The notes under the pieces are model-generated. The model did not search any database. It saw only the letters and a list, made by a program, of their open reading frames with translations, and had not been told where the DNA came from. A stretch of DNA of 64,000 nucleotides from Candidatus Nealsonbacteria bacterium DGGOD1a (GTDB lineage: Bacteria; Patescibacteriota; Minisyncoccia; Minisyncoccales; UBA5738): NCBI GenBank assembly GCA_022530585.1, contig CP092821.1, positions 70,222 to 134,221 on the forward strand. The letters are read 5' to 3'. The stretch's first letter is position 1, and each line of letters starts with the position of its first letter. The position numbers and the translations under genes are program-made. Of the stretch, positions 2,165 to 54,923 are shown one piece after another.

Positions 2165-2373
2165 GTTGTTTAAAAATATAAGACCGAGGTTATCACCGAA
2201 TTGCGCTGAATCAATGATCCAGCATAGTTCGGTGGTAACCATAAAAATCTTTTCCAATGGATTACCCCCCCAGAGATATGGGGGGGTTAAGAAAGGCGAT
2301 GGCGATAGCTATCGTGATGGAGATAGAGATGGCGATCACAAGGATAATCCTTTTTGATCGCTTATTTTTTATG

Positions 2374-2416
2374 TTGAGGTTTGACCTCAACACAACCTCA
2401 ACACAACCTCAACAAA
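2374..2416. repeat. Perfect palindrome TTGAGGTTTGACCTCAA followed by tandem CACAACCTCAA units
   Basis: The 2374-2390 palindrome has the same GAGGT..ACCTC core as the 419-535 sites. An 11-nt unit is repeated twice directly after it. Confidence 0.8.
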
Positions 2417-3888: not shown

Positions 3889-4845
3889 ATGGATATTATC
3901 AATATTCTTTTGGTTGTCGGCGGCTTGGCGATTTTTGAGATCGTCAACAGTATCGATAACGCCATTATCAATGCCCATGTTTTGAAAACGATGAGCGTCA
4001 AATGGCGCAAGATTTTTCTGTTTTGGGGATTGATATTCGCGGTGTTTGTGATCCGCGGGGTTTTGCCGTTTTTGATCGTATGGATCACGGTGCCCGGGAT
4101 TTCGATCGTTGAAGCTTTCCAAGCGATGTTTTCCGGCGCGCCGGAAGTCGTCGAGGCGATAAACGCGGGCAAACCGCTGATTTTGATGGGGGCCGGAGTT
4201 TTTCTTTTGCTTTTATATCTTCACTGGCTGTTCCTTGAAGAAAAATTGCCGCTGTTCGTGGTCGACAAACTGATCAAGCCGCATTTTGGAATATGGTTTT
4301 TCGCGTGCGCGGCGGTTTTGCTTACCGCTTTGCTTTATTTTGCCAAAGCCAACCCTTTATTGATGCTTTCGGCGGCGATTGGCAACGCGATGTTTTTTAT
4401 TCTCTACGGGTTCCGCGAGCAAGCCGAAAAGGGAAGCGAACGATTGCTGGCCGGCGGCGGCGGGATGGGCGATCTTTCCAAATTCTTATATCTGGAAGTT
4501 TTGGACGCGTCATTTTCTTTTGACGGAGTTTTGGGAGCGTTCGCGTTCACGACATCGATTCCATTGATATTGATCGGCAACGGCGTTGGCGCGTTTGTGG
4601 TGCGGGAAATGACCATCAGAAGCATTGATAAGGTGGCCAATTACAAATTCCTGAAGAACGGCGCGATGACATCAATCGGGATATTGGGAGCGATCATAAT
4701 TTTTGAGAGTTTCTCCGAGAGTTTGAAATTGGGTTTTGACATCCCCGACGCGGCCGCGCCGTTGATAACTTTCGCGCTGGTGGGCGTGGCATTTTGGGAA
4801 TCCCATAAGTTATTAAAGAAAGAAAATCATGCCGCGGCTGGTTGA
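3889..4845 (+). CDS. TerC/DUF475-like integral membrane protein
   Basis: Multi-pass hydrophobic profile. The N-terminal EIVNSIDNAIINA resembles the TerC-family E..S.DN motif. Confidence 0.55.
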   Translation: MDIINILLVVGGLAIFEIVNSIDNAIINAHVLKTMSVKWRKIFLFWGLIFAVFVIRGVLPFLIVWITVPGISIVEAFQAMFSGAPEVVEAINAGKPLILMGAGVFLLLLYLHWLFLEEKLPLFVVDKLIKPHFGIWFFACAAVLLTALLYFAKANPLLMLSAAIGNAMFFILYGFREQAEKGSERLLAGGGGMGDLSKFLYLEVLDASFSFDGVLGAFAFTTSIPLILIGNGVGAFVVREMTIRSIDKVANYKFLKNGAMTSIGILGAIIIFESFSESLKLGFDIPDAAAPLITFALVGVAFWESHKLLKKENHAAAG

Positions 4846-5668
4846 CACTCACGCGCATTTGAATCTGGAGGTCTTTGACGGCGATCGCTGGCAGGTGATC
4901 GAAAATTCCTTGAGCGAGGGGGTTTTTATGATCAATGTCGGAGTCAACTACGCTTCGTCTTTGCGCGCGGTGGAAATCGCCGAAGATTCCGGCAAAGGGG
5001 TTTGGGCGGCGATCGGCTTGCATCCGGAAAATATCGACGACGATTTCCACCCCGATATCAAAGATTTCCGGCGGCCCGAAGACATCAAGGAACCGGCGTT
5101 TGATGCCAAACTTTATCGTAAGCTGGCGCGATCATCCCAAAAAATTGTTGCCATCGGCGAGATCGGTTTGGATTATTTGCATTTGCCCAAAGACCAAATT
5201 AAAGCGCCGCGCGTCCGCGACAAGCAGGCGGATATTTTCAAACGACAACTGGCGCTGGCCCGCGAACTTGATTTGCCCGCGATTATCCATACGCGCATCG
5301 CGCATAAGGACACGATCGGGATTTTGCGCGAATTCGCGGAATCGGAGGGAAGCGTTAAAGGCGTGATCCATTGTTTCACCGGCAACGCCAAAGAAGCGCG
5401 TCAGTATTATGATTTGGGATTGCATTTCGGATTGAACGGCATTATTTTCAAGCTCGATTTGAATGAGGTGATCGCAAAAATGCCTTTGGACCGGATTTTG
5501 CTGGAAACCGATTGTCCGTTTCTGTCCCCTTCGCGTGAAATCAAACGCAACGAACCGAAATATGTTTTGAATATCGCCGAGCGCGTGGCGCAAATTCGCA
5601 ACGATTCGGTTGAAACCATCATCGAAGCCGCTACGGTAAACGCGAAAAAACTGTTTGGTATCGGTTGA
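4829..5668 (+). CDS. TatD-family metal-dependent hydrolase/DNase
   Basis: N-terminal LVDTHAHLN, then EIGLDY, IHTR, GVIHCFTG and ETDCPFL motifs typical of TatD/YcfH. Confidence 0.85.
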   Translation: MPRLVDTHAHLNLEVFDGDRWQVIENSLSEGVFMINVGVNYASSLRAVEIAEDSGKGVWAAIGLHPENIDDDFHPDIKDFRRPEDIKEPAFDAKLYRKLARSSQKIVAIGEIGLDYLHLPKDQIKAPRVRDKQADIFKRQLALARELDLPAIIHTRIAHKDTIGILREFAESEGSVKGVIHCFTGNAKEARQYYDLGLHFGLNGIIFKLDLNEVIAKMPLDRILLETDCPFLSPSREIKRNEPKYVLNIAERVAQIRNDSVETIIEAATVNAKKLFGIG

Positions 5669-5837: not shown

Positions 5838-6138
5838 CTTTCACCCGCCGTAGCTTTATGCGCTGGCGGGTTTTGCTTGAATCTACCGCGGGCGATAGCG
5901 GATAAGCCCGCTCATAAAAATAGAACTGCCGAGGAATAAGTGATGATGCGCAAAAAAGACTAAAGACTGGTTCTGACGGGATCGTGTTTTTGTTGGGTCT
6001 TGTTTAATCTTAATTGAGCGTAGCGAAATCAAGATTAAACAAGCACTCTTGTTGAATCTTACATAATCTTATATAGTTAAAATAGAAGATTAATTTTTTT
6101 ATTTACTTTTAATTGCGAAATCATTATTTATTCAAAAA

Positions 6139-7224
6139 ATGGAAAATAAATTTAATGTTCGTTTGGAGAATTTGCCGGCGGAGATTTGGCGGATGGTGAG
6201 CGAAATTGACGAGTACAAGGGCCGGTGGATTGCCGGGGCGCAGTTGAACCCGCAGGTGCTGGGACGCTTGAAACGGTCGGTTCTGATTACTTCCACCGGC
6301 GCTTCCACGCGGATTGAGGGCTCCAAGCTCTCCGACGAAGATATTGAAAAAATGATGCGAGGGATAGATATTCAAAAATTTGCCGATCGCGACAAGCAGG
6401 AAGCGCGAGGATATTATGAATTGTTAGAGAATGTTTTTAATTCTTGGCAATCGCTTAACTTTTCGGAAAACACCATCAAACATTTTCATAAGGAGCTTTT
6501 GAAGTATGTGGCCAAGGATGAGGGGCATCGAGGAGAATATAAAAAACAAGACAATAAAGTGATTATGGTTAACGGTGCCGGGCAGTCGGTTGGCGTTTTA
6601 TTTGATACTACTTCGGTTCATTTGACGCCCAAGGAAATGCAGGAGCTGGCGGAGTGGGCACAGGTTGCGTTTAAAGAAAAGAAATATCATCCGCTTTTAA
6701 TAATCGCGAATTTTATTGTTGAATTTTTGGCAATTCATCCATTCCAAGATGGAAATGGCCGGCTTTCCCGTGTTCTTACCAATTTATTGCTTTTGAAAAG
6801 CAATTATCAATACGCGCCCTATGTTTCTCACGAGAAACTTATTGAGGATAACAAACCGGAATATTATCTGTCGTTGCGGAAAAGCCAAAAAACATTTTTG
6901 TCTGCCAATGATTTAGCTATGGAGGATAAGACGCCAAAAGAGGATATTGCTTCTTGGTTGGAGTTTTTCTTGGGAATTATTTTGAAGCAATCGCGGATGG
7001 CGATTGATTTGCTTTCAAGGGAGAATATCGAAAAATTGCTCTCGCCCAAACAACTTAAAGTTTGGGAATATTTTCAGCAGGCAAACGAAGCGACGCCGGC
7101 TCAAATCGCCGCCGCCACCGGTATCGCTCGCCCCACGCTGAACCAATCGCTCGATAAACTTCTGCGTCTGAAAAAAATTGAACGCCTGGGCCAGGGCCGC
7201 GCCACTCGCTATCGCAAAATATAG
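6139..7224 (+). CDS. Fic-family protein (AMPylase-type) with a C-terminal winged-helix region
   Basis: Canonical Fic motif HPFQDGNGRLSR. The C-terminus has an HTH-like segment, ATPAQIAAATGIARPTLNQSLDKL. Confidence 0.85.
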   Translation: MENKFNVRLENLPAEIWRMVSEIDEYKGRWIAGAQLNPQVLGRLKRSVLITSTGASTRIEGSKLSDEDIEKMMRGIDIQKFADRDKQEARGYYELLENVFNSWQSLNFSENTIKHFHKELLKYVAKDEGHRGEYKKQDNKVIMVNGAGQSVGVLFDTTSVHLTPKEMQELAEWAQVAFKEKKYHPLLIIANFIVEFLAIHPFQDGNGRLSRVLTNLLLLKSNYQYAPYVSHEKLIEDNKPEYYLSLRKSQKTFLSANDLAMEDKTPKEDIASWLEFFLGIILKQSRMAIDLLSRENIEKLLSPKQLKVWEYFQQANEATPAQIAAATGIARPTLNQSLDKLLRLKKIERLGQGRATRYRKI

Positions 7225-7340: not shown

Positions 7341-7512
7341 TAATTTGAGAGTGTAGAAAAACTATTTTCGGAACGAAATTTTCAGATTTCGAGCGAGAAA
7401 AATGAGGAAGGAGAAGGCATACTTGACTTAAAGTCTGCCGCCGACTGACGAATTTTTCGTAGCCGAAAGATGGAAATTGCAGTTGAAATATAGTTTTTCT
7501 ACACTCTCAATT
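7341..7512. repeat. ~170-bp imperfect palindrome (MITE-like or long hairpin RNA)
   Basis: 21-bp perfect terminal inverted repeat: ttgagagtgtagaaaaactat (7344-7364) versus atagtttttctacactctcaa (7489-7509). The interior arms are also partly complementary. Confidence 0.8.
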
Positions 7513-7857
7513 TAACTTTGGCTCGTTCATCTGCTTTGATAAAGTATCGTCCAAAACCATGATGGCTTTAATCCATTTCCTTGAAACTTAAACGCATTGA
7601 GGATAATATCCAAAACCTTGCGAACCCTATTTCTATTTTCAAGTGAAAGATTGTCAAATTTAGCCATATTTTTTCATTACTTTTTTATACCCGACTGGTT
7701 GAGGCAATCTTAATGGTTCCGTCGATTTATTTCAAGATTAAAGCAAATCAACCTTGACAATGACCAATAATTTGGTTAGGCTTTGGTCAGAAAAATTTTT
7801 GGAGGTATATTAGTGCCTTTTGTAGAAAATTCACAACAAGCAACCAAGGAAAGGGTT

Positions 7858-8139
7858 ATGGAAGGAAGTATCAGCGATACCGCGATGGAGCTTATGAACA
7901 GACTTCACCTGCTTGGAAATGGAAGCACAGAAGAAGAACTTTCTTGGCTTTGCACCGCAATCAATAGTAAATACAATGAAGGTGACATAGAGAGTATTTA
8001 CGGATTGCCGGATATTCTGCTCGCAAAAGTCATAGAGCATAATGATGGTAAACTTCTATCGTGCGCGGCAATTATTGCCAAGGCACTCCATTTGCCAGTC
8101 TTCGAAGCAAAAAAGGCTATTGAAGCATTAGAGGAATAA
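7858..8139 (+). CDS. Hypothetical protein
   Basis: ORF only (MEGSISDTAMELMNRLHLLG...). No motif recognised. Confidence 0.3.
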   Translation: MEGSISDTAMELMNRLHLLGNGSTEEELSWLCTAINSKYNEGDIESIYGLPDILLAKVIEHNDGKLLSCAAIIAKALHLPVFEAKKAIEALEE

Positions 8140-8353
8140 ATTTATTTTAATTTATTTTCTTTTTTTTATACGCTTATTGGTCTAACAATTTCTTATTCAT
8201 CAGGGACTTCCTTTTTTATCGTTTTATCTTATCGGGACGAGATTAAGTCTTTCCAGTTCTATACCGACTGTTTTCCAATCTACCGTTCTAAACTCATTCA
8301 CTAACGCCCGCCTTCACCCCGCCGCCGCTTTATGCGAAAGCGGGCTTTGTTTT

Positions 8354-8372
8354 CAGAGGGTCTAACCCTCTG
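8354..8372. repeat. Short hairpin of the GGGTCTAACCC type
   Basis: cagagggtctaaccctctg. It is related to the core of the 38-nt repeat and lies upstream of the ATPase gene. Confidence 0.7.
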
Positions 8373-8440
8373 AAACCTTCTGAATTTTAAGTGAGGCGGT
8401 TTTGCTTTCGCGAAATCGTTTTTTATTCTAAAATGGAAAA

Positions 8441-10993
8441 ATGGAAAATAATTTGAAAGATATAAAAGGGTTGTCTTCCCGGGAAGTTGAGGAAAGATTG
8501 AAAACCGATGGTTATAATGAAATACCGGCGCAGGGGAAGCGCGGATTTTTTGCGATATTCGTTGAGGTTTTGAAAGAGCCGATGCTTTTGATTTTGGTGG
8601 CCGCGGGAGCGATCTATTTCTTTTTGGGCGAGCCGCGGGACGCATTGATGCTTTCCGTTTTTGTGGTGTTTATCGTGGGGATAACTTTTTACCAGCAGCG
8701 CAAAACCGAGCGCGCTTTGGAGTCGTTGCGCGATCTTTCCAGTCCGCGCGCGCTGGTGATTCGCGACGGGGCGCCGCGCCGCATTGCCGGAAGAGAAGTG
8801 GTGGTCGGCGATATTTTGGTTTTGCGCGAAGGCGACCGGGTGGCCGCCGATAGCGCGGTTTTGGAGTCGGTAAATCTGATGGTTGACGAGTCGTTGTTGA
8901 CCGGAGAATCGCTGGCGGTGGCCAAATCAATTTGGGACGGCAAAGAAGATGCCGCGGCGCATCGCCCGGGGGGTGACAGCCAGCCGTTTATTTATTCGGG
9001 GACATTGATTACCCGCGGCCACGGCTTGGCGCGGGCGCTGGCGATCGGCGCGGCGACGGAAATGGGCAAGATCGGCAAATCGCTTCAGGGGATTAAAGAA
9101 GGGGAAACTCTTTTGAGCAAGGAAACCGGGCGTTTGGCCAGGATATTCGGGATTATCGGATTGTCATTGTGTTTTCTGGCGGTGGTATTCCGATATCTTT
9201 CCAGCAATGAACTGCTTCAAAGCATTTTGTATGGCTTGACCATCGGAATGTCGATGTTGCCCGAAGAATTTCCGGTGGTGATGCTGGTGTTTTTGGCGCT
9301 GGGCGCGTGGCGTATTTCCAAGCGCAAAGTTTTAACGCGCAACGCGTCCGCGATCGAAGCGCTGGGCGCGGCCAATATTTTGTGCGTTGATAAAACCGGC
9401 ACATTGACGCTAAACCAAATGCGGTTGCAGCAGTTATCGTCGGGCGTTGCCAACATCGATCTTGCCGAATATGAGAGCGGCGAAAAAGATTTGCCCGACC
9501 ATTTTAAAAAATTGCTGGAATACGCGATGCTGGCGAGCCAGTCGGACCCTTTTGATCCGCTGGAAAAAGAAATAAAAAGGACGGGAGATTCATTTCTGTT
9601 CTCGGTTAATCGTTTGCAAGAATCATGGAAGCTGGTTAAGGAATATCCGTTTGCCGGAAATCTTTTGGCGCTTTCCCATGTTTGGGAGCCGGGTGACGGC
9701 GATCGTTATGTGGTGGCGGCCAAGGGCGCGCCTGAATCAATTATCGATCTTTGCCATTTAAGCGCCGCCAAGAAGGCGGCGGTTGAAGAACGGATGAAGC
9801 CGCTGCTTGAAAAAGGATTGAGATTGATTGCCGTGGCGGCGGCGAGCGCGGAAAAAACAAAATTGCCGGATTGCGGCCAGCATGATTTTGATTTTGAGTT
9901 CGTGGGGTTGCTTGGATTTTGCGATCCGATCCGGCCGTCGGCGGCGCGCGCGATAAAAGAATGTTATGACGCGGGAATCCGCGTGTGTATGATCACCGGA
10001 GATTATCCGGGAACGGCGCAGCACGCGGCGCGCGCGGTCGGGCTTAAAAATCCGGATGAATATTTGACCGGCGACGATCTTGGCAGTTTCAGCCATGAAC
10101 AGTTGCATAAGCGTTTGAAAACAGTGAATATTTTCGCGCGCGTGGCACCCGAACAAAAAATGCTGATCATCAACGCGTTTAAGGAAGGCGGAGTTGTTAT
10201 CGCGATGACCGGGGACGGCGTGAACGACGCGCCGGCATTGAAATCCGCCAATGTGGGCATTGCCATGGCCGAGCGGGGAACCGATGTGGCGCGCGAAGCC
10301 GCGGATTTGGTTTTGTTAAACGATGATTTCGCGTCGATCGTGGCTGCGGTGCGGATGGGCCGGATGGTTTTCGACAACATTAAAAAAGCGATCAGCTATA
10401 TTTTCGCCGTGCACATTCCAATCGCGGGAATGTCGTTTTTGCCCGTGGCGCTGGGAATGCCGGTGGTTTTTTATCCGGCGCATATCGCGTTTTTGGAATT
10501 GGTGATTGATCCGGCGTGTTCGGTGGCGTTTGAAGCCGAACCCGAAGATGAAAATGTAATGAGCCGGCCGCCGCGAAAATTGGACGAGCCGCTGTTCGGC
10601 AGAAAAGAGATTTTGAGAAGTTTGATGCAAGGCTTGGGAGTGTTGGCCGCGGTATTTTTGGTTTTTCTTTTCGCCATCTGGTCGGGCCGGAGCGAAGGGC
10701 AAACGCGCGCGCTGGCGTTTTTAACCATCGTTATCGCCAATTTGTCATTAATCATTGCCAATCTTTCTTCCGGCAATCCGTTCAAGGTTTTTGCCAATGG
10801 CAACAAAGCGTTTCGATTCATATTCCTCGCCACTTTAATCACGCTGACTTTGGTATTGTGCGTTCCGGCGTTGCGAAGCATTTTCCATTTTGATCCGATC
10901 GCCGCTTCCGATATTATTCCGGCAATCGCCGCCGGCGTTTTGGGCGCTTTCTGGTTGGCGCCGTTGAAAATATTTTTTAAACGAAAATCTTGA
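8441..10993 (+). CDS. P-type cation-transporting ATPase (P2/Ca2+-Mg2+-type)
   Basis: Phosphorylation motif CVDKTGTLT, hinge motif TGDGVNDAPAL, TGES actuator motif, about 10 TM segments, and a Cation_ATPase_N-like start LSSREVEERLKTDGYNEIP. Confidence 0.9.
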   Translation: MENNLKDIKGLSSREVEERLKTDGYNEIPAQGKRGFFAIFVEVLKEPMLLILVAAGAIYFFLGEPRDALMLSVFVVFIVGITFYQQRKTERALESLRDLSSPRALVIRDGAPRRIAGREVVVGDILVLREGDRVAADSAVLESVNLMVDESLLTGESLAVAKSIWDGKEDAAAHRPGGDSQPFIYSGTLITRGHGLARALAIGAATEMGKIGKSLQGIKEGETLLSKETGRLARIFGIIGLSLCFLAVVFRYLSSNELLQSILYGLTIGMSMLPEEFPVVMLVFLALGAWRISKRKVLTRNASAIEALGAANILCVDKTGTLTLNQMRLQQLSSGVANIDLAEYESGEKDLPDHFKKLLEYAMLASQSDPFDPLEKEIKRTGDSFLFSVNRLQESWKLVKEYPFAGNLLALSHVWEPGDGDRYVVAAKGAPESIIDLCHLSAAKKAAVEERMKPLLEKGLRLIAVAAASAEKTKLPDCGQHDFDFEFVGLLGFCDPIRPSAARAIKECYDAGIRVCMITGDYPGTAQHAARAVGLKNPDEYLTGDDLGSFSHEQLHKRLKTVNIFARVAPEQKMLIINAFKEGGVVIAMTGDGVNDAPALKSANVGIAMAERGTDVAREAADLVLLNDDFASIVAAVRMGRMVFDNIKKAISYIFAVHIPIAGMSFLPVALGMPVVFYPAHIAFLELVIDPACSVAFEAEPEDENVMSRPPRKLDEPLFGRKEILRSLMQGLGVLAAVFLVFLFAIWSGRSEGQTRALAFLTIVIANLSLIIANLSSGNPFKVFANGNKAFRFIFLATLITLTLVLCVPALRSIFHFDPIAASDIIPAIAAGVLGAFWLAPLKIFFKRKS

Positions 10994-16639: not shown

Positions 16640-17110
16640 ATGAGCGAGGTAATTAATTTTCGAGTTGATAAAAAAGTGAAAAGCGAAGCGCAAGCGATTG
16701 CCAAAAAAATGGGGCTTAATTTGAGCGATGTAATGAATCTTTTATTGCGCCAGATAGTTCGCGATAAAACGATTGAAATTAGACCAAGAGAATTGACTAA
16801 AAAAGTGAAATTGGCGGTGCATGTGCCGGTGGCGCACGCCGATGTTGTGCGCCGGGCGCTGGGGGTGGCGGGCGCGGGGAGGATCGGGAATTATGGTTTT
16901 TGCTCGTTTTCATGCCGGGGAACGGGGCGGTTTTGGGGAAACGAAAAATCCCATCCGGCCATCGGCAAGGCAGGCAAGCTGGAAACCGCCCAAGAAGAAC
17001 GGATCGAAGTCACGGTGCCGCGCGCGATTTTGCAAGAAGTGATCGCGAAGATGAAATCCGTCCACCCTTACGAAGAACCCACATTCGATATTTACCCGAT
17101 TGAAAACTGA
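16640..17110 (+). CDS. Fusion: RelB/DinJ-type RHH antitoxin-like N-terminus plus a NIF3/YqfO insert-type (PII-like) domain
   Basis: The N-terminus INFRVDKKVKSEAQAIAKKMGLNLSDVMNLLLRQIV matches the DinJ pattern. The C-terminus has VHVPVAHADVVRRALGVAGAGRIGNYGFCSFSCRGTGRF...HPYEEPTFDIYPI, typical of the NIF3 insertion domain. Confidence 0.6.
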   Translation: MSEVINFRVDKKVKSEAQAIAKKMGLNLSDVMNLLLRQIVRDKTIEIRPRELTKKVKLAVHVPVAHADVVRRALGVAGAGRIGNYGFCSFSCRGTGRFWGNEKSHPAIGKAGKLETAQEERIEVTVPRAILQEVIAKMKSVHPYEEPTFDIYPIEN

Positions 17111-23117: not shown

Positions 23118-23262
23118 TTGGCAAAGGTTAAAAATTAACCGGAAATGATCGGATTTTGACCGAAGCGCGGCGGGTACGGGTCTAAAATTTGACTTTGATC
23201 GCAAGAAGCGGTAAATTTATATCATACCCGATTCGGCGGGTGTTTTTTTGAGGGTAAATAAA

Positions 23263-23281
23263 ACAAGGGTTAGACCCTTGT
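23263..23281. repeat. Short hairpin of the GGGTTAGACCC type upstream of atpB
   Basis: acaagggttagacccttgt, 7 nt before the atpB start. Confidence 0.7.
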
Positions 23282-23288
23282 TAAAAAG

Positions 23289-38099: not shown

Positions 38100-38465
38100 C
38101 CCCTGTTTTGGAATGAATCCGGCCGTTCGGATTGGCAGCCGGCAGACCTGCCCAAAGGCACAGGCTATGATTTAACAACAGCAAGGCGTTGTTTTGCCAA
38201 GGTATGACCACAAACCAGTGTATTACCGCCAAAACAACGCCGTAGAAAAGGGCTCAAGCCTTGGCCTTACCGCTTGGGAATCGGGCTTAAAAACTTGTCA
38301 TTTATAGAATGCCAACTCAATGCCAACCAAATGACAAGTTTTTAACTGCACAACGCACACCTTCACCCCCCATCTTTTCGGCTAAAATGCGTTGTGCCAA
38401 GCCCGATTCCCAAGCCGGCTGCCGGTTTGCGAGCGAAGCCCTGGGTTGGTACTCCAAAACAGGGC
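38100..38465. ncRNA. Candidate structured RNA or extended palindromic DNA site (strand unknown)
   Basis: Perfectly nested complementarities. Outer pairs: 38101-38112/38453-38464 and 38134-38143/38414-38423. A hairpin forms at 38185-38196/38230-38241. A 17-bp stem at 38272-38288/38399-38415 encloses hairpins 38289-38303/38329-38343 and 38348-38357/38388-38397. Confidence 0.35.
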
Positions 38466-38578: not shown

Positions 38579-38628
38579 CCATAAGATAATTTGAAGATTG
38601 CACAGGTTAAACCTGTGCGATTGCGTAT

Positions 38629-39870
38629 ATGGCCGAGTTTAAATTTGAAATAATAAAACAGGATAAAAATTCGCGCGCGCGCGCCGGGGTGATCCATACG
38701 CGCCGGGGAGATATTGAAACGCCTTATTTTGTGCCGGTGGGGACTTTGGCGTCGGTGCGCGGTTTGGATTCATCCGACCTTGGAATGTTGGGCGCGCAAT
38801 GCGCGCTGATCAACACTTACCATTTGCATTTAAAGCCGGGCGACGAAACGATCAAGAAATTGGGCGGAACTCATAAATTTATGAATTTTGATTTGCCCTT
38901 GTTTTCGGATTCGGGCGGCTTTCAGGCGTTCTCGCTGGGATTGGCGCGCGAGCACAACATCGGCAAGATCGGCGTTTTCCCGGAAGAAACCGCGAACAGT
39001 GAACTTCTCGGAAATTTTAAAAGGGTCCGACCCTTTTTAAAAGGGTCCGACCCTTTTAAAAAAAATCTGGTACGAATCACCGGCGGGGGTATTGAATTCC
39101 GATCAATCTATGACGGATCGCGGCATTTTTTCGATGCCAAGAAATCGATGGAAATACAATCAAATTTGGACAGCGATATCATTATGGCGTTTGACGAATG
39201 CACCTCGCCGCTTTCGGATTATGATTATACCAAGATCGCGATGGCGCGGACTCACGATTGGGCCGAGCAATCGCTGGAATACCACAATAAAGACCAGGCA
39301 ATCTACGGCATAATCCAAGGCGGTTATTTCAAGGATTTGCGCGATATTAGCGCGAAATTTATCAATGATCTGCCTTTTGACGGGATTGCCATCGGCGGGT
39401 CGCTGGGAAAAACAAAAGCGGATATGCACGAAATTATTGATTGGGTGATTCCGCAATTGGATGTCCGGCCGCGCCATCTTTTGGGAATTGGAGAGATTGA
39501 TGATATTTTTAAATCCGTGGAACAAGGAATCGACACTTTTGATTGCGTGGCGGCCACGCGCAACGCGCGGCGCGGCTGTTTGTTTGTATTGCCCGAATCG
39601 GGCGGAAGTTTGGCCAACAAATTCCGCCTCAACATTTCCGGCGCGAAATATAAAAACGACAGCGATCCGATTGACGCAAACTGCCATTGCCCGGTATGCG
39701 AAAATTACTCCCGCGCCTATTTGCGTCATTTGCACAACGCGCGCGAATTAAGTTATTTTCGCCTGGCGACGATCCATAATTTGTGGTTTATGCTTCGCCT
39801 GATGGAAAAAATCCGGGAAAGCATAGAAAACGGCAGATTCGCGGAACTGAAAAAAGAATGGTTGGGATAA
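38629..39870 (+). CDS. tgt: Queuine tRNA-ribosyltransferase
   Basis: FSDSGGFQAF (catalytic Asp region), GIAIGG, and zinc site CHCPVCENYSRAYLRHLH. It carries an internal insertion of a palindromic repeat. Confidence 0.9.
   Translation: MAEFKFEIIKQDKNSRARAGVIHTRRGDIETPYFVPVGTLASVRGLDSSDLGMLGAQCALINTYHLHLKPGDETIKKLGGTHKFMNFDLPLFSDSGGFQAFSLGLAREHNIGKIGVFPEETANSELLGNFKRVRPFLKGSDPFKKNLVRITGGGIEFRSIYDGSRHFFDAKKSMEIQSNLDSDIIMAFDECTSPLSDYDYTKIAMARTHDWAEQSLEYHNKDQAIYGIIQGGYFKDLRDISAKFINDLPFDGIAIGGSLGKTKADMHEIIDWVIPQLDVRPRHLLGIGEIDDIFKSVEQGIDTFDCVAATRNARRGCLFVLPESGGSLANKFRLNISGAKYKNDSDPIDANCHCPVCENYSRAYLRHLHNARELSYFRLATIHNLWFMLRLMEKIRESIENGRFAELKKEWLG
39015..39065. repeat. Tandem palindromic repeat inserted in-frame in tgt
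   Basis: ttttaaaagggtccgaccc (39015-39033), tttttaaaagggtccgaccc (39034-39053), then ttttaaaaaaaa. Each unit is a hairpin aaaagggtc-c-gaccctttt. It is translated as FKRVRPFLKGSDPFKKN. Confidence 0.85.
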
Positions 39871-42238: not shown

Positions 42239-42742
42239 ATGAGAAAAACAATCTATATCTTCTTAATAATTTTGGGCATTGGCGGAGTTTTGGGGTTGAT
42301 GTCGGCAATACCCAAAAAAGACGCGGCCGGCGAACAATCGGCGAATTTTGATTCTGCGTCTAACCTCCAAAAAAACACCGGCAATATGTCGATTGCGGTC
42401 GCGCCCGCCCAAAAAGTGGAAGTTTTTCTGTTCCACCGTACGCAAAGATGTGCCACCTGTATTGCCATCGGCAAGTTAAGCGGCCAAACGGTTGAAGAAG
42501 AATTTGCCCCGGAAATTTTAAAAGGCAAAGTGGTATTCCTGGAGGTTAATGTCGATGAACCGCAAAACAAAGCTTTAGCCGAGAAATTCCAAGCCCGCGG
42601 TTCATCTTTGTTTATCAATGTTGTCAGGGGAGGAAGCGATAACATCCAAGAAGATATGGAGGTATGGCGGTTGACCAATGACCCGCAAGCTTTTAAAAAT
42701 TATCTGGCAGGCAAGATCAACAGACTGCTGGGCAAACAATGA
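42239..42742 (+). CDS. Membrane-anchored thioredoxin-like protein
   Basis: N-terminal TM segment. RCATC redox-type motif. Sits between the permease and a CcdA-like gene. Confidence 0.5.
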   Translation: MRKTIYIFLIILGIGGVLGLMSAIPKKDAAGEQSANFDSASNLQKNTGNMSIAVAPAQKVEVFLFHRTQRCATCIAIGKLSGQTVEEEFAPEILKGKVVFLEVNVDEPQNKALAEKFQARGSSLFINVVRGGSDNIQEDMEVWRLTNDPQAFKNYLAGKINRLLGKQ

Positions 42743-43452
42743 TGGAATTTTTAAACGCATTTATGGATAATAGCTCGATTTCTGCCGTTACTGCCATCCT
42801 CTTGGGCGTCTTAACTTCGATCAGCCCTTGCCCGTTGGCAACCAATATCGCGGCCATTGCCTACCTTTCCAAAAATCTAAAAACTATCAGAGGCACTCTG
42901 TCCAATGGCATATACTATGCCCTGGGTCGGGCGGCTAGCTATACTTTGCTGGCCATTTTAATTTATTACGGATTATCGGCTTTTCAAGTTTCTAAATCCG
43001 TCCAGGAGTGGGGCGAAAAGCTTTTGGGCCCTTTGCTTTTGTTTATCGGCTTGGCAATGTTTGATGTGATAAAAATCAAGTTTCCCTCCGGCAACGGCCA
43101 ACTGGAAAAAATAAAGTTTTGGCTGGCGGGAAAGGGAAGCCGGGGAGCCTTCCTCTTGGGCGCGATATTTGCCCTGGCCTTTTGTCCTTACAGCGCGGTA
43201 CTCTTCTTTGGCGCGCTTATTCCACTGGTGCTAAAATCTTCCGGCGGCCTGCTTTTACCTTCTTTATTCGCCCTAGGTACCGGCTTGCCGGTTATTATTT
43301 TTGCCTTCTTAATCGCTTTTAGCGCGCAAAAGATCGGGGCAATGTTTAAAGTAATGCAAAGAATCGAAAAGATTATGCGCTATGCTGTAGCCATAACTTT
43401 TATTTCAGTCGGCATATATTATCTGCGTTTTGCGTTTCATGCCAATGGTTGA
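42739..43452 (+). CDS. CcdA/DsbD-family transmembrane thiol-disulfide (electron) transporter-like protein
   Basis: Six TM helices with SISPCPL and FCPYS Cys motifs, typical of the CcdA/DsbD core. Confidence 0.6.
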   Translation: MMEFLNAFMDNSSISAVTAILLGVLTSISPCPLATNIAAIAYLSKNLKTIRGTLSNGIYYALGRAASYTLLAILIYYGLSAFQVSKSVQEWGEKLLGPLLLFIGLAMFDVIKIKFPSGNGQLEKIKFWLAGKGSRGAFLLGAIFALAFCPYSAVLFFGALIPLVLKSSGGLLLPSLFALGTGLPVIIFAFLIAFSAQKIGAMFKVMQRIEKIMRYAVAITFISVGIYYLRFAFHANG

Positions 43453-43578
43453 CCATTAAAACTCGCGAAATATTTTTATAAAGGGTTCGACCCTTTGGAT
43501 TATGTCTCGGGAATACTTGGGACGGGCGATAAGACTAGACCTTTGAAATGAGAAAACACCCCGAATGCTTTCTTGCCA

Positions 43579-53315: not shown

Positions 53316-53525
53316 ATGCGCGGAAATAAAATCATAATTATAGTCATTGGCGTTGTTTTTGCGGTTATGGCGGCAATCGGGTTTTGGGAGTATGCCGGCG
53401 GTTTTCTTGGCGGGAATGATCAAAAACCGCAATTTCAACCGTTGCCAAAAACCGAATCCGTTGAAAATGAAAACAAAAACAGCGGTTCCATCGATCTCGT
53501 CCGTCCGCCCTTCCTTGATGAATGA
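53316..53525 (+). CDS. Small membrane-anchored hypothetical protein
   Basis: MRGNKIIIIVIGVVFAVMAAIGFW TM anchor. No motif recognised. Confidence 0.4.
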   Translation: MRGNKIIIIVIGVVFAVMAAIGFWEYAGGFLGGNDQKPQFQPLPKTESVENENKNSGSIDLVRPPFLDE

Positions 53526-53547
53526 TCGAGAAATTAAATTAAAAAAT

Positions 53548-54369
53548 ATGAAAATGAAAAATTTTTACCAGTTATTTGCCACGGCCGCAGTTCTTGGTTT
53601 TTTCGCCGCAATGCCGCAGGTTTCAAACGCCCAAACCGCGACCACAACCTTTCCGGTCGATCAGGCCGGCATCGCTGCCTATGTGAAACTCGGCCAATTG
53701 AGTTTGGATAATTTCGAGAACGCGAAAAATAACCTGTTTGATTATGTGGAAAATGCCGGAAGCGCTTACCTGATTGGCGTCAAAAAATATCCGGTTAGCG
53801 ATATTGAGATTACCAACAATACGATTGATGTCCGCCTTTATCTTGGCGCCAACGGCTGGCTGGTGGCCTATCTTCCGAAAGACCAGGAGCCGAGCCGGAT
53901 CGTTAATTGGCATTCGGGCCAGCCGTTGAGCAATACGATTCTGAAGGTTGCCGTTGACGACGCGGTCCAAAAAATCGGCGCGGCCGCGGCCGGGCCCGTG
54001 AACTACTATGATTTTGTCTATCCTGGTGCCAACAAAATGACTTTTGCCCGGCAAAACCTGAGCGATACGCTCGAAGGCGCCAATTCCGATTTGTCCAAAA
54101 CAATCAGCATTTTTGTTCCCGGAACTTTGTTGCAAGCAACCTATGCCATCAAGAGTTATGCCTCGGAGTGGGTGCCGAACAACGGTCCCCGCGCAGTATT
54201 GAATTTGAACAATGAACAAGTTGCCGTTTGCAACCCCGGTTCTTTTGGATACGGAACCTATCCCGGCGCTTTGTTCGCTTCGAACGCGAACAACAGCATC
54301 GAGCTGGCGCGGGGCAGCGGCATAAGGTATGTTTCGGCAGCGACCGCGCTGATCTATAAAACAAATTAA
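53548..54369 (+). CDS. Secreted hypothetical protein
   Basis: Signal peptide MKMKNFYQLFATAAVLGFFAAMPQVSNAQ. Its last ~168 bp are duplicated downstream. Confidence 0.55.
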   Translation: MKMKNFYQLFATAAVLGFFAAMPQVSNAQTATTTFPVDQAGIAAYVKLGQLSLDNFENAKNNLFDYVENAGSAYLIGVKKYPVSDIEITNNTIDVRLYLGANGWLVAYLPKDQEPSRIVNWHSGQPLSNTILKVAVDDAVQKIGAAAAGPVNYYDFVYPGANKMTFARQNLSDTLEGANSDLSKTISIFVPGTLLQATYAIKSYASEWVPNNGPRAVLNLNNEQVAVCNPGSFGYGTYPGALFASNANNSIELARGSGIRYVSAATALIYKTN

Positions 54370-54444
54370 CCAAAAATGTCAAAGAAACAAAAAATCTGGT
54401 TTGCGGTATTTCTGGCAATGTTCGCGGTGCCGGAAGTGCTGTGG
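54202..54444 (+). repeat. 243-bp direct repeat, copy 1
   Basis: Identical by eye to 54681-54923 (offset 479 bp). It spans the 3' end of the 53548-54369 gene, the spacer, and the first 69 nt of the next gene. Confidence 0.9.
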
Positions 54445-54687
54445 GGATTGGTGAATACATTTTTGTTTAAAATGTCATTGTTCCCGCCGCTTCAATCAAA
54501 TAAGTTGAATGCTTTAATAGTTAGTATCGAATTTGTTGGTATTTTATTCGCTACCATTATTTCTTTTCTGTTTTATACCCCCCCAAATATTTTCTTAAGG
54601 GCCACGATAAGAATTGTTTTTTTGATTTTGTTGTTGTTAACTTTTTATCTTTTATTGTTTTCTTTTAATTTTAATCCGCAAATTTGA
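54376..54687 (+). CDS. Small multi-TM membrane protein (variant 1)
   Basis: The N-terminus MSKKQKIWFAVFLAMFAVPEVLW is shared with 54855-55211. The remainder differs. Confidence 0.55.
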   Translation: MSKKQKIWFAVFLAMFAVPEVLWGLVNTFLFKMSLFPPLQSNKLNALIVSIEFVGILFATIISFLFYTPPNIFLRATIRIVFLILLLLTFYLLLFSFNFNPQI

Positions 54688-54923
54688 ACAATGAACAAGT
54701 TGCCGTTTGCAACCCCGGTTCTTTTGGATACGGAACCTATCCCGGCGCTTTGTTCGCTTCGAACGCGAACAACAGCATCGAGCTGGCGCGGGGCAGCGGC
54801 ATAAGGTATGTTTCGGCAGCGACCGCGCTGATCTATAAAACAAATTAACCAAAAATGTCAAAGAAACAAAAAATCTGGTTTGCGGTATTTCTGGCAATGT
54901 TCGCGGTGCCGGAAGTGCTGTGG
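54681..54923 (+). repeat. 243-bp direct repeat, copy 2
   Basis: See 54202-54444. Confidence 0.9.

Follow-up and report, generated by a model that had tools for sequence, protein, structure and literature searches.

The tgt gene in the window (the whole 64,000-nt stretch of Candidatus Nealsonbacteria DNA analysed here) carries two identical palindromic hairpin units, in tandem and in frame. With a probability of roughly 70%, the pair is a REP-like doublet of a dispersed hairpin family, probably moved by a RAYT-like enzyme and tolerated in a disordered loop of the protein. The units belong to a family that is scattered through the genome and has in-frame copies in other genes, and family hairpins flank a transposase gene whose modeled fold is nearest to that of a RAYT.

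The hairpin pair within tgt

On sequence grounds, the product of the host ORF is bacterial Tgt (queuine/preQ1 tRNA-ribosyltransferase). The Pfam TGT profile was matched with E = 9e-126 (420 bits), and a PDB search retrieved E. coli Tgt at E = 7e-92. Residues D94, D189 and D305 (catalytic Asp) and the zinc site C352/C354/C357/H383 are invariant in an alignment of 37 homologs (A1), while the core of the AlphaFold model has pLDDT values above 90. Downstream (3') of the hairpin pair, Tgt stays conserved with no break.

As read, positions 39015-39065 consist of TTTT AAAAGGGTCCGACCCTTTT T AAAAGGGTCCGACCCTTTT AAAAAAAA. A repeat search detected two 20-nt units of 100% identity (39015-39034 and 39035-39054) and an inverted repeat of 23+23 nt that is 96% complementary (39015-39037 and 39039-39061). 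The first four bases of the A8 run that follows unit 2 pair with the TTTT at 39015-39018, and for the 47-nt palindrome the predicted fold is one 21-bp hairpin, perfect except for a C-C mismatch, in the manner of a REPIN-like doublet. The calculated folding energies are -35.1 kcal/mol (z -5.0) as RNA and -20.6 kcal/mol (z -4.4) as DNA.

The initial annotation described two tandem palindromic units that are translated without breaking the frame. Both points were borne out, as the units are identical and the 413-aa ORF runs across them (Table 1). The translation across the repeat is ...GNFKRVRPFLKGSDPFKKNLVRI..., in which residues F130-K145 (peptide FKRVRPFLKGSDPFKK) are the 16 codons derived from the palindrome. 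No stop codon is present in any of the six frames of the 19-nt unit; for the 51-nt block as a whole, only the frame in use and one on the opposite strand are free of stops. A reading of GGGTTCGACCC as a mimic of the T-arm or anticodon loop of the Tgt substrate was rejected, given the 3-nt loop, the lack of UGU and the occurrence of the hairpin in unrelated genes.

Table 1. Positions of the tgt gene, its hairpins, related hairpins and the transposase gene (window coordinates unless another sequence is named)
Feature	Position	Strand	Description
tgt CDS (tRNA-guanine transglycosylase)	38629..39870	+	intact, 413 aa; contains the hairpin pair
Lineage-specific insert	38950..39072	+	41 residues (108-148), missing from ordinary bacterial Tgt
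Tgt peptide spanning the insert (example)			IGVFPEETANSELLGNFK
Near-perfect palindrome	39015..39061	no strand	47 nt; both tgt units with TTTT/AAAA flanks
Hairpin unit 1	39019..39037	no strand	AAAAGGGT-CCG-ACCCTTTT; 8-bp stem, 3-nt loop; codes KRVRPF(L)
Hairpin unit 2	39039..39057	no strand	same as unit 1; one frame further on, codes KGSDPF
A8 run 3' of unit 2	39058..39065	+	codes K144-K145 and the start of N146
Hairpin TGTTGAGGT-TTG-ACCTCAACA	2372..2392	no strand	intergenic family member
Hairpin TTTCAGAGGGT-CTA-ACCCTCTGAAA	8351..8375	no strand	intergenic; subfamily of the inverted doublets in L139
Hairpin AACAAGGGT-TAG-ACCCTTGTT	23262..23282	no strand	intergenic family member
Hairpin GCACAGGT-TAA-ACCTGTGC	38600..38618	no strand	intergenic family member, 10 nt upstream of the tgt ATG
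Hairpin AAAGGGT-TCG-ACCCTTT (AAAGGGTTCGACCCTTT)	43480..43496	no strand	intergenic; 27 nt past the stop of ORF 42739..43452
P0129, Y1/HUH transposase gene	167278-168036 of the tgt-carrying contig (GCA_029216075.1) = L139 10001-10759		252 aa; assigned by homology and model

The lineage-specific loop

The hairpin pair lies within an insert that is missing from ordinary bacterial Tgt. In the alignment to E. coli Tgt the query is skipped from residue 107 to 149, with chain residues 111 and 112 adjacent. The span from DSGGFQ to FDEC measures 98 aa here versus 57 aa in about 60 ordinary Tgt sequences, a baseline drawn from metagenome loci that are mostly distant Tgt (about 40% identity) and include few close relatives. 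All 113 parsed close homologs have an enlarged loop at this site (82-158 residues), and hairpin-type peptides occur in only 10 of them. Conserved flanks (GLAREHNIGKIG.FP.E ... K.NL) enclose a hypervariable middle. In the AlphaFold model the insert has pLDDT values below 50 and no secondary structure, and is thus modeled as a disordered, flexible loop.

By this comparison, the insert is older than the hairpin pair, and the palindrome accounts for part of it only (16 codons). The initial annotation had put the segment without counterpart in bacterial Tgt at about 35 codons. This holds for residues 108-148, although the segment starts earlier than supposed and includes GLAREHNIGKIG; NLVRIT does not belong to it, as ordinary Tgt has the counterpart LRKIT. 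Equating the extra codons with the element was not sustained either, given the enlarged loop in 113/113 homologs and the hairpin-type peptides in 10/113.

Perfect 8-13 bp hairpins of different subfamilies are found in this loop in seven of eight close tgt orthologs. More distant orthologs with the same loop (L012, L060-L068) have no hairpin. Among metagenome loci related to tgt, which include few close relatives, no empty-site or copy-number variants were found.

Comparison of tgt orthologs

Relatives whose Tgt is 94% and 87% identical have the orthologous doublet, and judged from these alignments it is therefore old. In the ortholog P0001 both units have a TCG loop, so that C has changed to T in both loops together. 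By their loops the doublets of the window (CCG, CCG) and of P0001 (TCG, TCG) are direct, whereas those of P0002, P0009 and L139 are perfectly inverted with stems of 21-22 bp. Direct and inverted forms differ in one central loop base, and the direct tgt doublet also folds as one long hairpin.

Between the window and L009, 32/32 stem bases are identical, with 89% identity over the palindrome and 74% at third codon positions. L009 also shows a compensatory change in the flanks (TTTT/AAAA to TTCT/AGAA), and the two loops are complementary to each other in L009 (CCG/CGG) and L010 (TAG/CTA). The conservation of the small-hairpin stems above neutral sites could mean a selected local function and not passive persistence.

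In P0003 (L008), the core of the tgt hairpin is the exact reverse complement of the 19-nt core of the intergenic hairpin at 2372..2392 of the window. Relative to P0003, the sequence between CCSGAAGAR and AATCT is not a clean insertion but a replacement, which leaves the insertion in tgt without clear boundaries.

A dispersed hairpin family

Family members are perfect hairpins with stems of 7-13 bp, 3-nt loops, a common top GGT-N3-ACC and lower stems specific to each subfamily. They were collected by a search for perfect hairpins, which makes a formal covariation test on the family circular. The window contains 55 perfect 8-bp hairpins versus 10 +/- 3 in Markov simulations. Perfect hairpins with the GGT-N3-ACC top number nine, versus 0.13 expected and a maximum of two in 100 simulations. 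Allowing up to three mismatches, a 17-mer was matched seven times versus 0.21 expected from shuffles. The subfamilies include CGAAGGT, CAGAGGGT and AAAAGGGT.

Window copies with a stem of at least 7 bp are all intergenic except the tgt pair. The similar non-coding palindrome that had been noted near 43481 is real, and its TCG loop (hairpin 43480..43496) is that of both tgt units in P0001. A further 16 family hairpins are present in L139, a 20.7-kb segment of the tgt-carrying contig of the same strain (GCA_029216075.1). The exact tgt unit recurs there at 8639-8661 and 16648-16664, and inverted doublets of 48 nt lie at 4519-4566 and 5385-5432. Over the 85 kb of this genome examined, 22 of 25 family hairpins are outside long ORFs, the exceptions being the tgt pair and a doubtful 6-bp hairpin at 33620. 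An Rfam search gave no family above the gathering threshold; with permissive settings the only matches were AU-hairpin look-alikes below threshold, at 39013-39065.

The 19-mer in other Patescibacteria

Several Patescibacteria MAGs have the exact 19-mer AAAAGGGTYCGACCCTTTT in multiple copies (13, 11, 10, 7, 5 and 5), the 13 copies being those of UBA6102. Most copies form doublets 20-25 nt apart. In unrelated phyla the 19-mer gave single matches only. It had no match in the viral contigs scanned, and there is accordingly no sign of a phage vector.

In-frame copies are not confined to tgt but occur in unrelated genes of related Patescibacteria genomes. Doublets are found in TsaD and YchF, in a Mur ligase between the M and C domains, in the inter-domain linker of a GT4 glycosyltransferase, in large secreted proteins and at one orthologous site of an FAD oxidoreductase in three MAGs. 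When the peptide encoded by the hairpin was strung into a 57-aa synthetic concatenate, a protein search found no other host proteins. Among other MAG loci, 35 of 102 family hairpins (34%) lie deep inside open frames of at least 200 aa, versus 66% of bases. Family hairpins are depleted in coding sequence but not excluded from it.

The transposase P0129

In the same-strain assembly, a gene for a Y1/HUH transposase lies 71 kb from tgt. It is outside the window, and a tblastn search of the 64-kb window with the transposase gave no match. Hairpins surround the gene at L139 positions 9945-61, 9965-81, 10775-91, 10815-31 and 10907-23. Upstream, CGAAGGT-CTA-ACCTTCG is present twice; on the downstream side it recurs in inverted form, with a TAG loop, along with additional copies. 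The flanking hairpins are of the CGAAGGT subfamily and not of the AAAAGGGT subfamily found in tgt. Homologs of P0129 in L044, L021, L141 and L142 likewise lie between their own GGT/GT-N3-AC(C) hairpins.

Residues H106, H108, Y162, Y166 and Q168 are invariant in the P0129 family. Three family members exceed the Pfam Y1_Tnp cut-off of 23 bits (37.9, 28.1 and 24.5), whereas P0129 alone scores 17.9 bits. Sequence searches with P0129 gave no match in PDB or NCBIfam, so that the link to RAYT needed a structure model; with the family profile, ISDra2 TnpA was found at no better than E = 0.3. The AlphaFold model of P0129 (pLDDT 84.7) was compared with the PDB by Foldseek. Its best match is 4er8_A (E = 3.3e-5, TM 0.62 on target), the structure of E. 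coli RAYT in complex with a REP hairpin. ISDra2 and ISHp608 TnpA come next, ranks 2-15 being Y1/HUH transposases.

Origin of the tgt doublet

By analogy with REP/REPIN-RAYT systems, a Y1/HUH transposase would recognize a single-stranded hairpin or hairpin pair, cut it and re-insert it elsewhere. P0129 probably moves the hairpins of this family, and the tgt copy would have arrived by transposition, landing in the hypervariable, disordered middle of the older lineage-specific loop. The inserted block keeps the tgt frame. A disordered-loop site, a stop-free unit and a preserved frame together leave Tgt intact with 16 extra residues, and the copy is probably neutral for the enzyme.

Assemblers can collapse or expand short perfect repeats, and the tandem unit might be an assembly or sequencing artefact. 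This reading is effectively refuted. Four independent assemblies, made from different data sets with different assemblers (NCBI GCA_029216075.1, JGI 3300019861, JGI 3300001389 and Logan SRR21915714), agree at every nucleotide of the tgt CDS including the repeat, the reading frame is kept, and the doublet is orthologous in the two relatives described above. For the sister variant P0001, three more assemblies likewise agree. Assemblies of this strain all have exactly two units in tgt; no copy-number variant, empty-site allele or transposition event of the doublet was seen among them. The units might also be of local origin: replication slippage and template switching in an unconstrained loop would have corrected a quasi-palindrome, which was then duplicated in tandem with no mobile element. 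Their adjacency and 100% identity, the joint C to T change in both P0001 loops (as local copying predicts) and a loop that tolerates any sequence fit this scenario, which is nonetheless improbable. A 20-nt duplication alone would break the frame, and the P0003 hairpin core is the reverse complement of a window hairpin 36 kb away. The 19-mer and its subfamily relatives recur in this and other genomes, including beside the transposase gene, and many identical copies at unlinked loci argue strongly against a purely local origin. Very improbable is an explanation of the hairpins as ordinary intrinsic terminators, with the tgt copy as an internal attenuator or a fossil gene boundary. The layout of A-tract, GC-core and T-tract resembles that of a bidirectional terminator, a stop codon lies 27 nt before the copy at 43480, and REPs are often located just past gene 3' ends (PMC3733652). 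A terminator scan nevertheless did not call the tgt units, in which the T run is within the stem and is followed by A8, with no U tract. For several intergenic members (2373, 23263 and 38600) neither strand has a T tract, or the position is upstream of a gene, and one identical 19-mer at more than 10 sites per genome is not expected of unrelated terminators.

Selection on the structure itself was weighed in two forms. The doublet may be a tgt-specific, selected cis-acting structure, either a 21-bp mRNA hairpin serving as an RNase III site, translation pause or stability element, or a DNA cruciform, and its resemblance to the dispersed hairpins would then be secondary. The strong predicted RNA fold, the fully conserved stems beside 74% identity at third codon positions, the compensatory flank change in L009, the complementary loops in L009 and L010, and hairpins of the same architecture in the same loop of 7/8 close orthologs are all consistent with such a role. 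It is considered unlikely, as the identical 19-mer is found at many unrelated sites, both intergenic and within unrelated genes, while the distant orthologs with the same loop have no hairpin and the peptide signature is limited to 10/113 homologs. In addition, intra-strand repair or conversion from other copies can keep palindromes perfect without selection, and the sample is small (47 nt, three sequences). A tentative and rather doubtful extension of the transposition model is that REP-type doublets are a general source of lineage-specific loops in Patescibacteria and that some copies, including the one in tgt, are kept by selection. These genomes have little intergenic space, so elements would survive mainly in frame within linkers. 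The evidence for selection would be the full conservation of the stems while neutral sites diverged by 26%, and selection might favor the tuning of expression by a 21-bp mRNA hairpin, or else a peptide module. A REP-like doublet, mobilized by a RAYT-like enzyme and tolerated in the loop, is the preferred reading.

Comparison with known systems

REP/REPIN elements with RAYT ("REPtrons") are known from Proteobacteria, namely E. coli, Pseudomonas and Stenotrophomonas (PMC3733652, PMC5581495, PDB 4er8). The family described here is similar in its short, dispersed and mostly extragenic palindromic hairpins, in frequent doublets able to fold as one long hairpin, in several subfamilies per genome and in some copies that lie within genes or overlap stop codons. 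A Y1/HUH transposase gene with repeats on both sides, its fold nearest to E. coli RAYT, is a further likeness. REP superfamilies have a terminal GTAG tetranucleotide by the stem, or CGTC in a superfamily without RAYT (PMC3733652). The present family differs in having neither tag: within 8 nt outside the stem, GTAG and GACG (CGTC) were each found in one of 127 hairpins. What is conserved instead is the top of the hairpin, GGT-N3-ACC, where the loop is reduced to a minimum of 3 nt. Because each element is almost a perfect palindrome, only one base distinguishes a direct from an inverted doublet, and direct ones are common. At 250 aa versus 165 aa, the transposase is longer and barely detectable by Pfam, in some genomes about one copy in three is intragenic, and the host phylum, Patescibacteria, is absent from the cited REP/RAYT papers. 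Beyond the missing tag, the hairpins may be recognized in a different way, to judge from their conserved top and the divergence of the 250-aa transposase.

IS200/IS605 elements (IS608, ISDra2) share the Y1/HUH fold, and their transposases recognize sub-terminal DNA hairpins on single strands. There the transposase lies between the hairpins and whole units are multicopy, whereas the hairpins here are dispersed alone.

The initial annotation likened the in-frame palindrome to the Rickettsia palindromic elements (RPEs), which were reportedly described by Ogata et al. in 2000 and are about 100-150 bp long. The core of that reading, a dispersed palindrome inserted in frame, holds, but the closest system is REP/REPIN with RAYT. 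RPEs end in CGTC, have no dedicated transposase and include a copy in a tRNA-modification gene, TruB of R. conorii (PMC3733652). As with RPEs, palindromic selfish DNA lies in frame in conserved genes and adds a surface peptide without destroying the protein, and tgt is intact with its in-frame copy, as are TsaD, Mur ligase, YchF and GT4 glycosyltransferase genes of related genomes with theirs. The differences are the 19-nt units and 47-nt doublet, the absence of a CGTC tag and of any sequence relationship, and the other phylum.

REP units wholly within the ORFs of known proteins, in frame, were described by Di Nocera et al. (2013), who argued that intragenic REPs are neutral because they are placed in linkers or loops and who reported different REPs at approximately the same site in orthologous Xanthomonas recB genes (PMC3733652). 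The Tgt loop resembles that case in having different repeats at one orthologous site. It differs in that the published units belong to GTAG- or CGTC-tagged superfamilies of other phyla, whereas here the loop of one gene is filled in many orthologs by different subfamilies. The in-frame event in an essential-type enzyme, which had been singled out as notable, is real but less exceptional, since in-frame REPs in housekeeping genes are published (PMC3733652). Full-text literature searches for palindromic, REP, REPIN or RAYT elements in Patescibacteria found no description, and the genome paper of this organism does not mention palindromic or REP-like elements.

As an event the tgt doublet is of a known kind, but the bacterial group, the ultra-small Patescibacteria (CPR), is new for it. 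Up to one third of copies are in frame within housekeeping genes of reduced genomes, and the hairpin elements provide a concrete and testable origin for some of the protein insertions specific to CPR. The peptides KGSDPF, KRVRPF and KGPTLF in CPR proteins are element markers and not functional motifs, and assemblies are likely to break at the perfect repeats. In-frame colonization of the kind known from RPEs is here linked to an identifiable enzyme.

Tandem palindrome in tgt

By direct reading, the repeat block within tgt is TTTT-AAAAGGGTCCGACCCTTTT-T-AAAAGGGTCCGACCCTTTT-AAAAAAAA. A repeat search showed 100% identity between its two 20-nt units, and 47 nt of the block form a 23+23-nt inverted repeat that is 96% complementary (fold z = -5). 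A single unit has a 3-nt loop on an 8-bp stem. The initial annotation described the repeat as in frame, and this was borne out: the open reading frame is continuous across it, and counting codons assigns F130-K145, FKRVRPFLKGSDPFKK, to the block. The product is a genuine Tgt (Pfam TGT, E 9e-126; E. coli Tgt structures, E 7e-92). The 19-mer unit is stop-free in all six frames; one strand encodes KRVRPF, KGSDPF or KGPTL and the opposite strand KRVGPF, KGSDPF or KGRTL. In the full 51-nt block, only the frame used and one antisense frame are open. Four independent assemblies carry a tgt coding sequence identical at the nucleotide level, with 0-2 base differences from the window in the surrounding 4.3-7.2 kb. 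This rules out the tandem as an assembly artefact, an error for which a check had been proposed.

Coordinates of tgt, family hairpins and neighboring elements
Sequence	Position	Feature	Remark
Window	38629..39870 (+)	tgt	413 aa
Window	38950-39072	Extra Tgt segment	Residues 108-148
Window	39015-39065	Repeat block	
Window	39015-39034, 39035-39054	20-nt units	
Window	39015-39061	47-nt palindrome	
Window	2372, 8351, 17750, 23262	Family hairpins	Intergenic
Window	38600-38618	Family hairpin GCACAGGT-TAA-ACCTGTGC	Intergenic; ends 10 nt 5' of tgt ATG
Window	43480	Family hairpin	Intergenic; 27 nt past stop codon
Window	33620	Doubtful family hairpin	6 bp
Window	38255-38425	Nested hairpin	Perfect 17-nt arms 38272-88/38399-415 and 38287-303/38329-45
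Window	54202-54444, 54681-54923	Perfect 243-nt direct repeat	479 nt start to start; first copy overlaps 3' end of ORF 53347..54369; palindrome TTGTTCGCTTCGAACGCGAACAA in each copy
L139	1-6540	Retroelement-like cassette	JARDUI010000019.1, 157278-163800
L139	4519-4566, 5385-5432	Identical 48-nt inverted doublets TTTTCAGAGGGTCTAACCCTCT-GATC-AGAGGGTTAGACCCTCTGAAAA	Flank avd
L139	6515-6537	CAGAGGGT hairpin	Contains end of reverse transcriptase gene (5925-6536)
L139	8639-8661	Family hairpin at gene 3' end	TAA stop of AAA_14 gene (7389-8642) inside TTAAAAGGGT...
JARDUI010000019.1	167278-168036	P0129 gene	
JARDUI010000019.1	239048-240289	tgt	
L142	10219-10243	Family hairpin CCTGCAGGGGT-CCG-ACCCCTGCAGG	Within RAYT-like transposase CDS itself; also on both sides of the gene
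L021	2714-2752	Hairpin doublet	
L032	121-160	Hairpin doublet	

A dispersed hairpin family

Allowing up to three mismatches, the window contains seven matches to the 17-mer core, where 0.21 would be expected. It also has 55 perfect 8-bp hairpins (loops of 3-7 nt), compared with 10 ± 3 in Markov simulations. Among hairpins with a 3-nt loop and a stem of at least 6 bp, nine have a GGT-N3-ACC top (0.13 expected; maximum of 2 in 100 simulations). These include the non-coding palindrome that had been claimed near 43481-43500, which is indeed present. The 20.7-kb stretch L139 of the same strain (GCA_029216075.1) contains two exact copies of the tgt unit and one variant with a TCG loop; the CAGAGGGT subfamily is represented there by two identical inverted doublets of 48 nt.

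A scan for AAAAGGGTYCGACCCTTTT, taking one genome per species, returned 45 loci. Several copies of the 19-mer are present in each of a handful of Patescibacteria MAGs (13, 11, 10, 7, 5 and 5), usually arranged as doublets, direct or inverted, with a spacing of 20-25 nt. Matches in unrelated phyla were single and isolated. Many doublets lie in frame within real genes, encoding TsaD, YchF, a Mur ligase (between the M and C domains), a GT4 glycosyltransferase (inter-domain linker), an FAD oxidoreductase (one shared site across three MAGs) and large secreted proteins. Further in-frame copies are thus found in several genes of related genomes. In the window, all GGT-N3-ACC copies are intergenic except the tgt pair and one doubtful case. 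Of the 102 family hairpins at the retrieved loci, 35 are located 20 codons or more inside an open frame of at least 200 aa, as are 66% of bases. Selection acts against coding copies, yet these are far from rare.

Several observations concern the surroundings of these repeats. The hairpin just ahead of tgt occupies the expected position of its ribosome-binding site and could affect translation initiation. Also upstream of tgt, ~170 nt of non-coding 37916-38628 fold into a long nested hairpin that is nearly perfect (-73.9 kcal/mol, z -7.4). It matches no Rfam family and could represent a MITE-like element or a structured RNA that lacks annotation. The L139 cassette resembles a diversity-generating retroelement: a giant protein (>4200 aa), in which inteins and a C-terminal FGE-sulfatase-type domain are present, is accompanied by a bAvd gene and by an RVT_1 reverse transcriptase; the doublets around avd may be part of VR/TR-flanking repeats. 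Doublets at L021 and L032 lie immediately 5' of a reverse-transcriptase-like ORF (motif ...RVIRAAPFADRVVHHA...), of which a tested 136-aa fragment had no Pfam match. Contigs of the 'Candidatus Pacearchaeota archaeon AMR_MDS_1835' MAG share genes and hairpin sites with the Patescibacteria MAGs UBA6102 and Minisyncoccales MFD12107 (L014 versus L018; L037 versus L040/L051), and several Tgt homologues bear the source names Methanothrix or Woesearchaeota. These archaeal labels probably reflect epibiont CPR DNA mis-binned with archaeal hosts.

The Tgt loop and its occupants

Aligned to E. coli Tgt, the query breaks off at residue 107 and resumes at 149, positions that correspond to the adjacent residues 111 and 112 of the chain. 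The DSGGFQ-to-FDEC distance is 98 residues, compared with 57 in ~60 ordinary bacterial Tgt from metagenomes, which delimits the extra segment. In 36 close homologues (Paceibacteria/Minisyncoccales, going by source names), conserved flanks, GLAREHNIGKIG.FFP.E and K.NL(T/V)(K/R)IT, enclose a hypervariable middle of ~6 to 100 residues. The enlarged loop (82-158 residues) was found in all 113 parsed homologues and hairpin-type peptides in only 10, so the loop predates the palindrome, which fills only the variable middle. The initial annotation had noted ~35 surrounding codons without a Tgt counterpart; such a segment exists, but with different bounds, and is mostly unrelated to the element. In the AlphaFold2 model the core has pLDDT >90, residues 96-164 fall below 50 and the insert lacks secondary structure. 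The proposed surface loop is thus consistent with the model, which fits a flexible loop but does not prove it. Catalytic aspartates and zinc-site residues are invariant.

The orthologous doublet is present in the Tgt orthologues P0001 (94% identity) and P0002 (87%). In P0001 both loops are TCG, as in the intergenic copy at 43480, while unit 2 of P0002 has a CGG loop and TTCT/AGAA flanks, which yields an inverted repeat of 22 bp without mismatch. Comparison of P0002 with the window shows identity at 32/32 stem bases in the two small hairpins, at 89% of the 47-nt palindrome and at 74% of third codon positions in the rest of tgt. The pair in P0009 (79%), AAAAGGGT-TAG-ACCCTTTT / AAAAGGGT-CTA-ACCCTTTT, is inverted and differs in its flanks; hairpins of the ACCGGGGT-CCA-ACCCCGGT type occur in P0005 and L059. 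P0003 (92%) has one hairpin only, CTGTTGAGGT-CAA-ACCTCAACAG, with a 19-nt core that in reverse complement matches the window intergenic hairpin 2373-2391 exactly. Hairpins of this kind are lacking in more distant Tgt that share the loop (L012, L060-L068). These differences indicate that the loop was repeatedly occupied by different members of one family. Since the doublet is shared by lineages with ~15% tgt nucleotide difference, it is older than their split, an old resident rather than a recent arrival.

A RAYT-like transposase

At two of the 19-mer loci, hairpins lie either side of a 250-aa protein matching Pfam Y1_Tnp (IS200-like), homologues of which are widespread in Patescibacteria. The 252-aa P0129 has Candidatus Nealsonbacteria bacterium DGGOD1a as its source name; its gene shares a contig with this tgt, and the coordinates place it ~71 kb from tgt and ~33 kb beyond the window. 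On the upstream side, at 20-56 nt, are two CGAAGGT-CTA-ACCTTCG hairpins in tandem; on the downstream side the inverted form (TAG loop) follows at 16 nt, then further copies. Homologous genes at L044, L021, L141 and L142 are likewise flanked by their own hairpins, with the GGT/GT-N3-AC(C) top kept and genome-specific lower stems. H106, H108, Y162, Y166 and Q168 are invariant in the family. Y1_Tnp scores were 37.9, 28.1, 24.5 and 17.9 bits (cut-off 23), the last, below cut-off, being that of P0129. The top PDB match of its AlphaFold2 model (pLDDT 84.7) was 4er8_A (E 3.3e-5, TM 0.62 on target), the E. coli REP-associated tyrosine transposase in complex with a REP hairpin (PDB 4er8), followed by ISDra2 and ISHp608 TnpA. 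We infer mobilization of the hairpins by a P0129-type enzyme, and likewise the subfamilies it serves.

Origin of the palindrome

The palindrome in tgt is best seen as a REP/REPIN-like doublet from the Patescibacteria hairpin family. Most likely, it was moved as single-stranded DNA by a RAYT-like Y1 transposase. Its insertion into tgt, presumably neutral for Tgt, would have been a stop-free, frame-preserving fall into a disordered hypervariable loop, which would explain its persistence. A tgt-specific selected RNA or DNA structure would fit the conserved stems, the compensatory changes and the fold z, but not the occurrence of the identical sequence at many unrelated sites or the lack of it in most orthologues. 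A purely local origin through slippage or template switching fails to explain why unlinked loci carry identical copies. If the hairpins were terminators, a trailing U tract would be expected; the tgt units have none, the terminator scan did not call them and several intergenic members lie away from gene 3' ends.

Comparison with known systems

Full-text searches turned up no description of palindromic elements, RAYT or REPIN in Patescibacteria/CPR. The only paper with both 'REP-associated tyrosine' and 'Patescibacteria' uses the former as a KEGG annotation of an archaeal gene, and the DGGOD1a genome paper mentions transposases but not these repeats. The finding should interest specialists in mobile elements and CPR genome evolution.

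Proteobacteria, along with a few other phyla, are established hosts of REPs, REPINs and RAYT 'REPtrons'. Like REPs, the Patescibacteria family consists of dispersed hairpins, mostly extragenic, and comes with a RAYT-like gene flanked by them. Unlike REPs, it has no GTAG/CGTC tag (1/127 hairpins for each), and because the units are almost perfect palindromes, their orientation is set by one loop base. REPs wholly inside ORFs of known proteins have been reported, and intragenic REPs are argued to occupy linkers or loops (Di Nocera et al. 2013, PMC3733652), so the tgt case is no surprise in principle. In-frame colonization by a palindromic element, for which Rickettsia RPEs had been proposed as the analogue, is supported. 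RPEs end in CGTC (PMC3733652), and the Patescibacteria family differs from them in size, tag, sequence and host; REP/RAYT, not RPE, is the fitting analogue.
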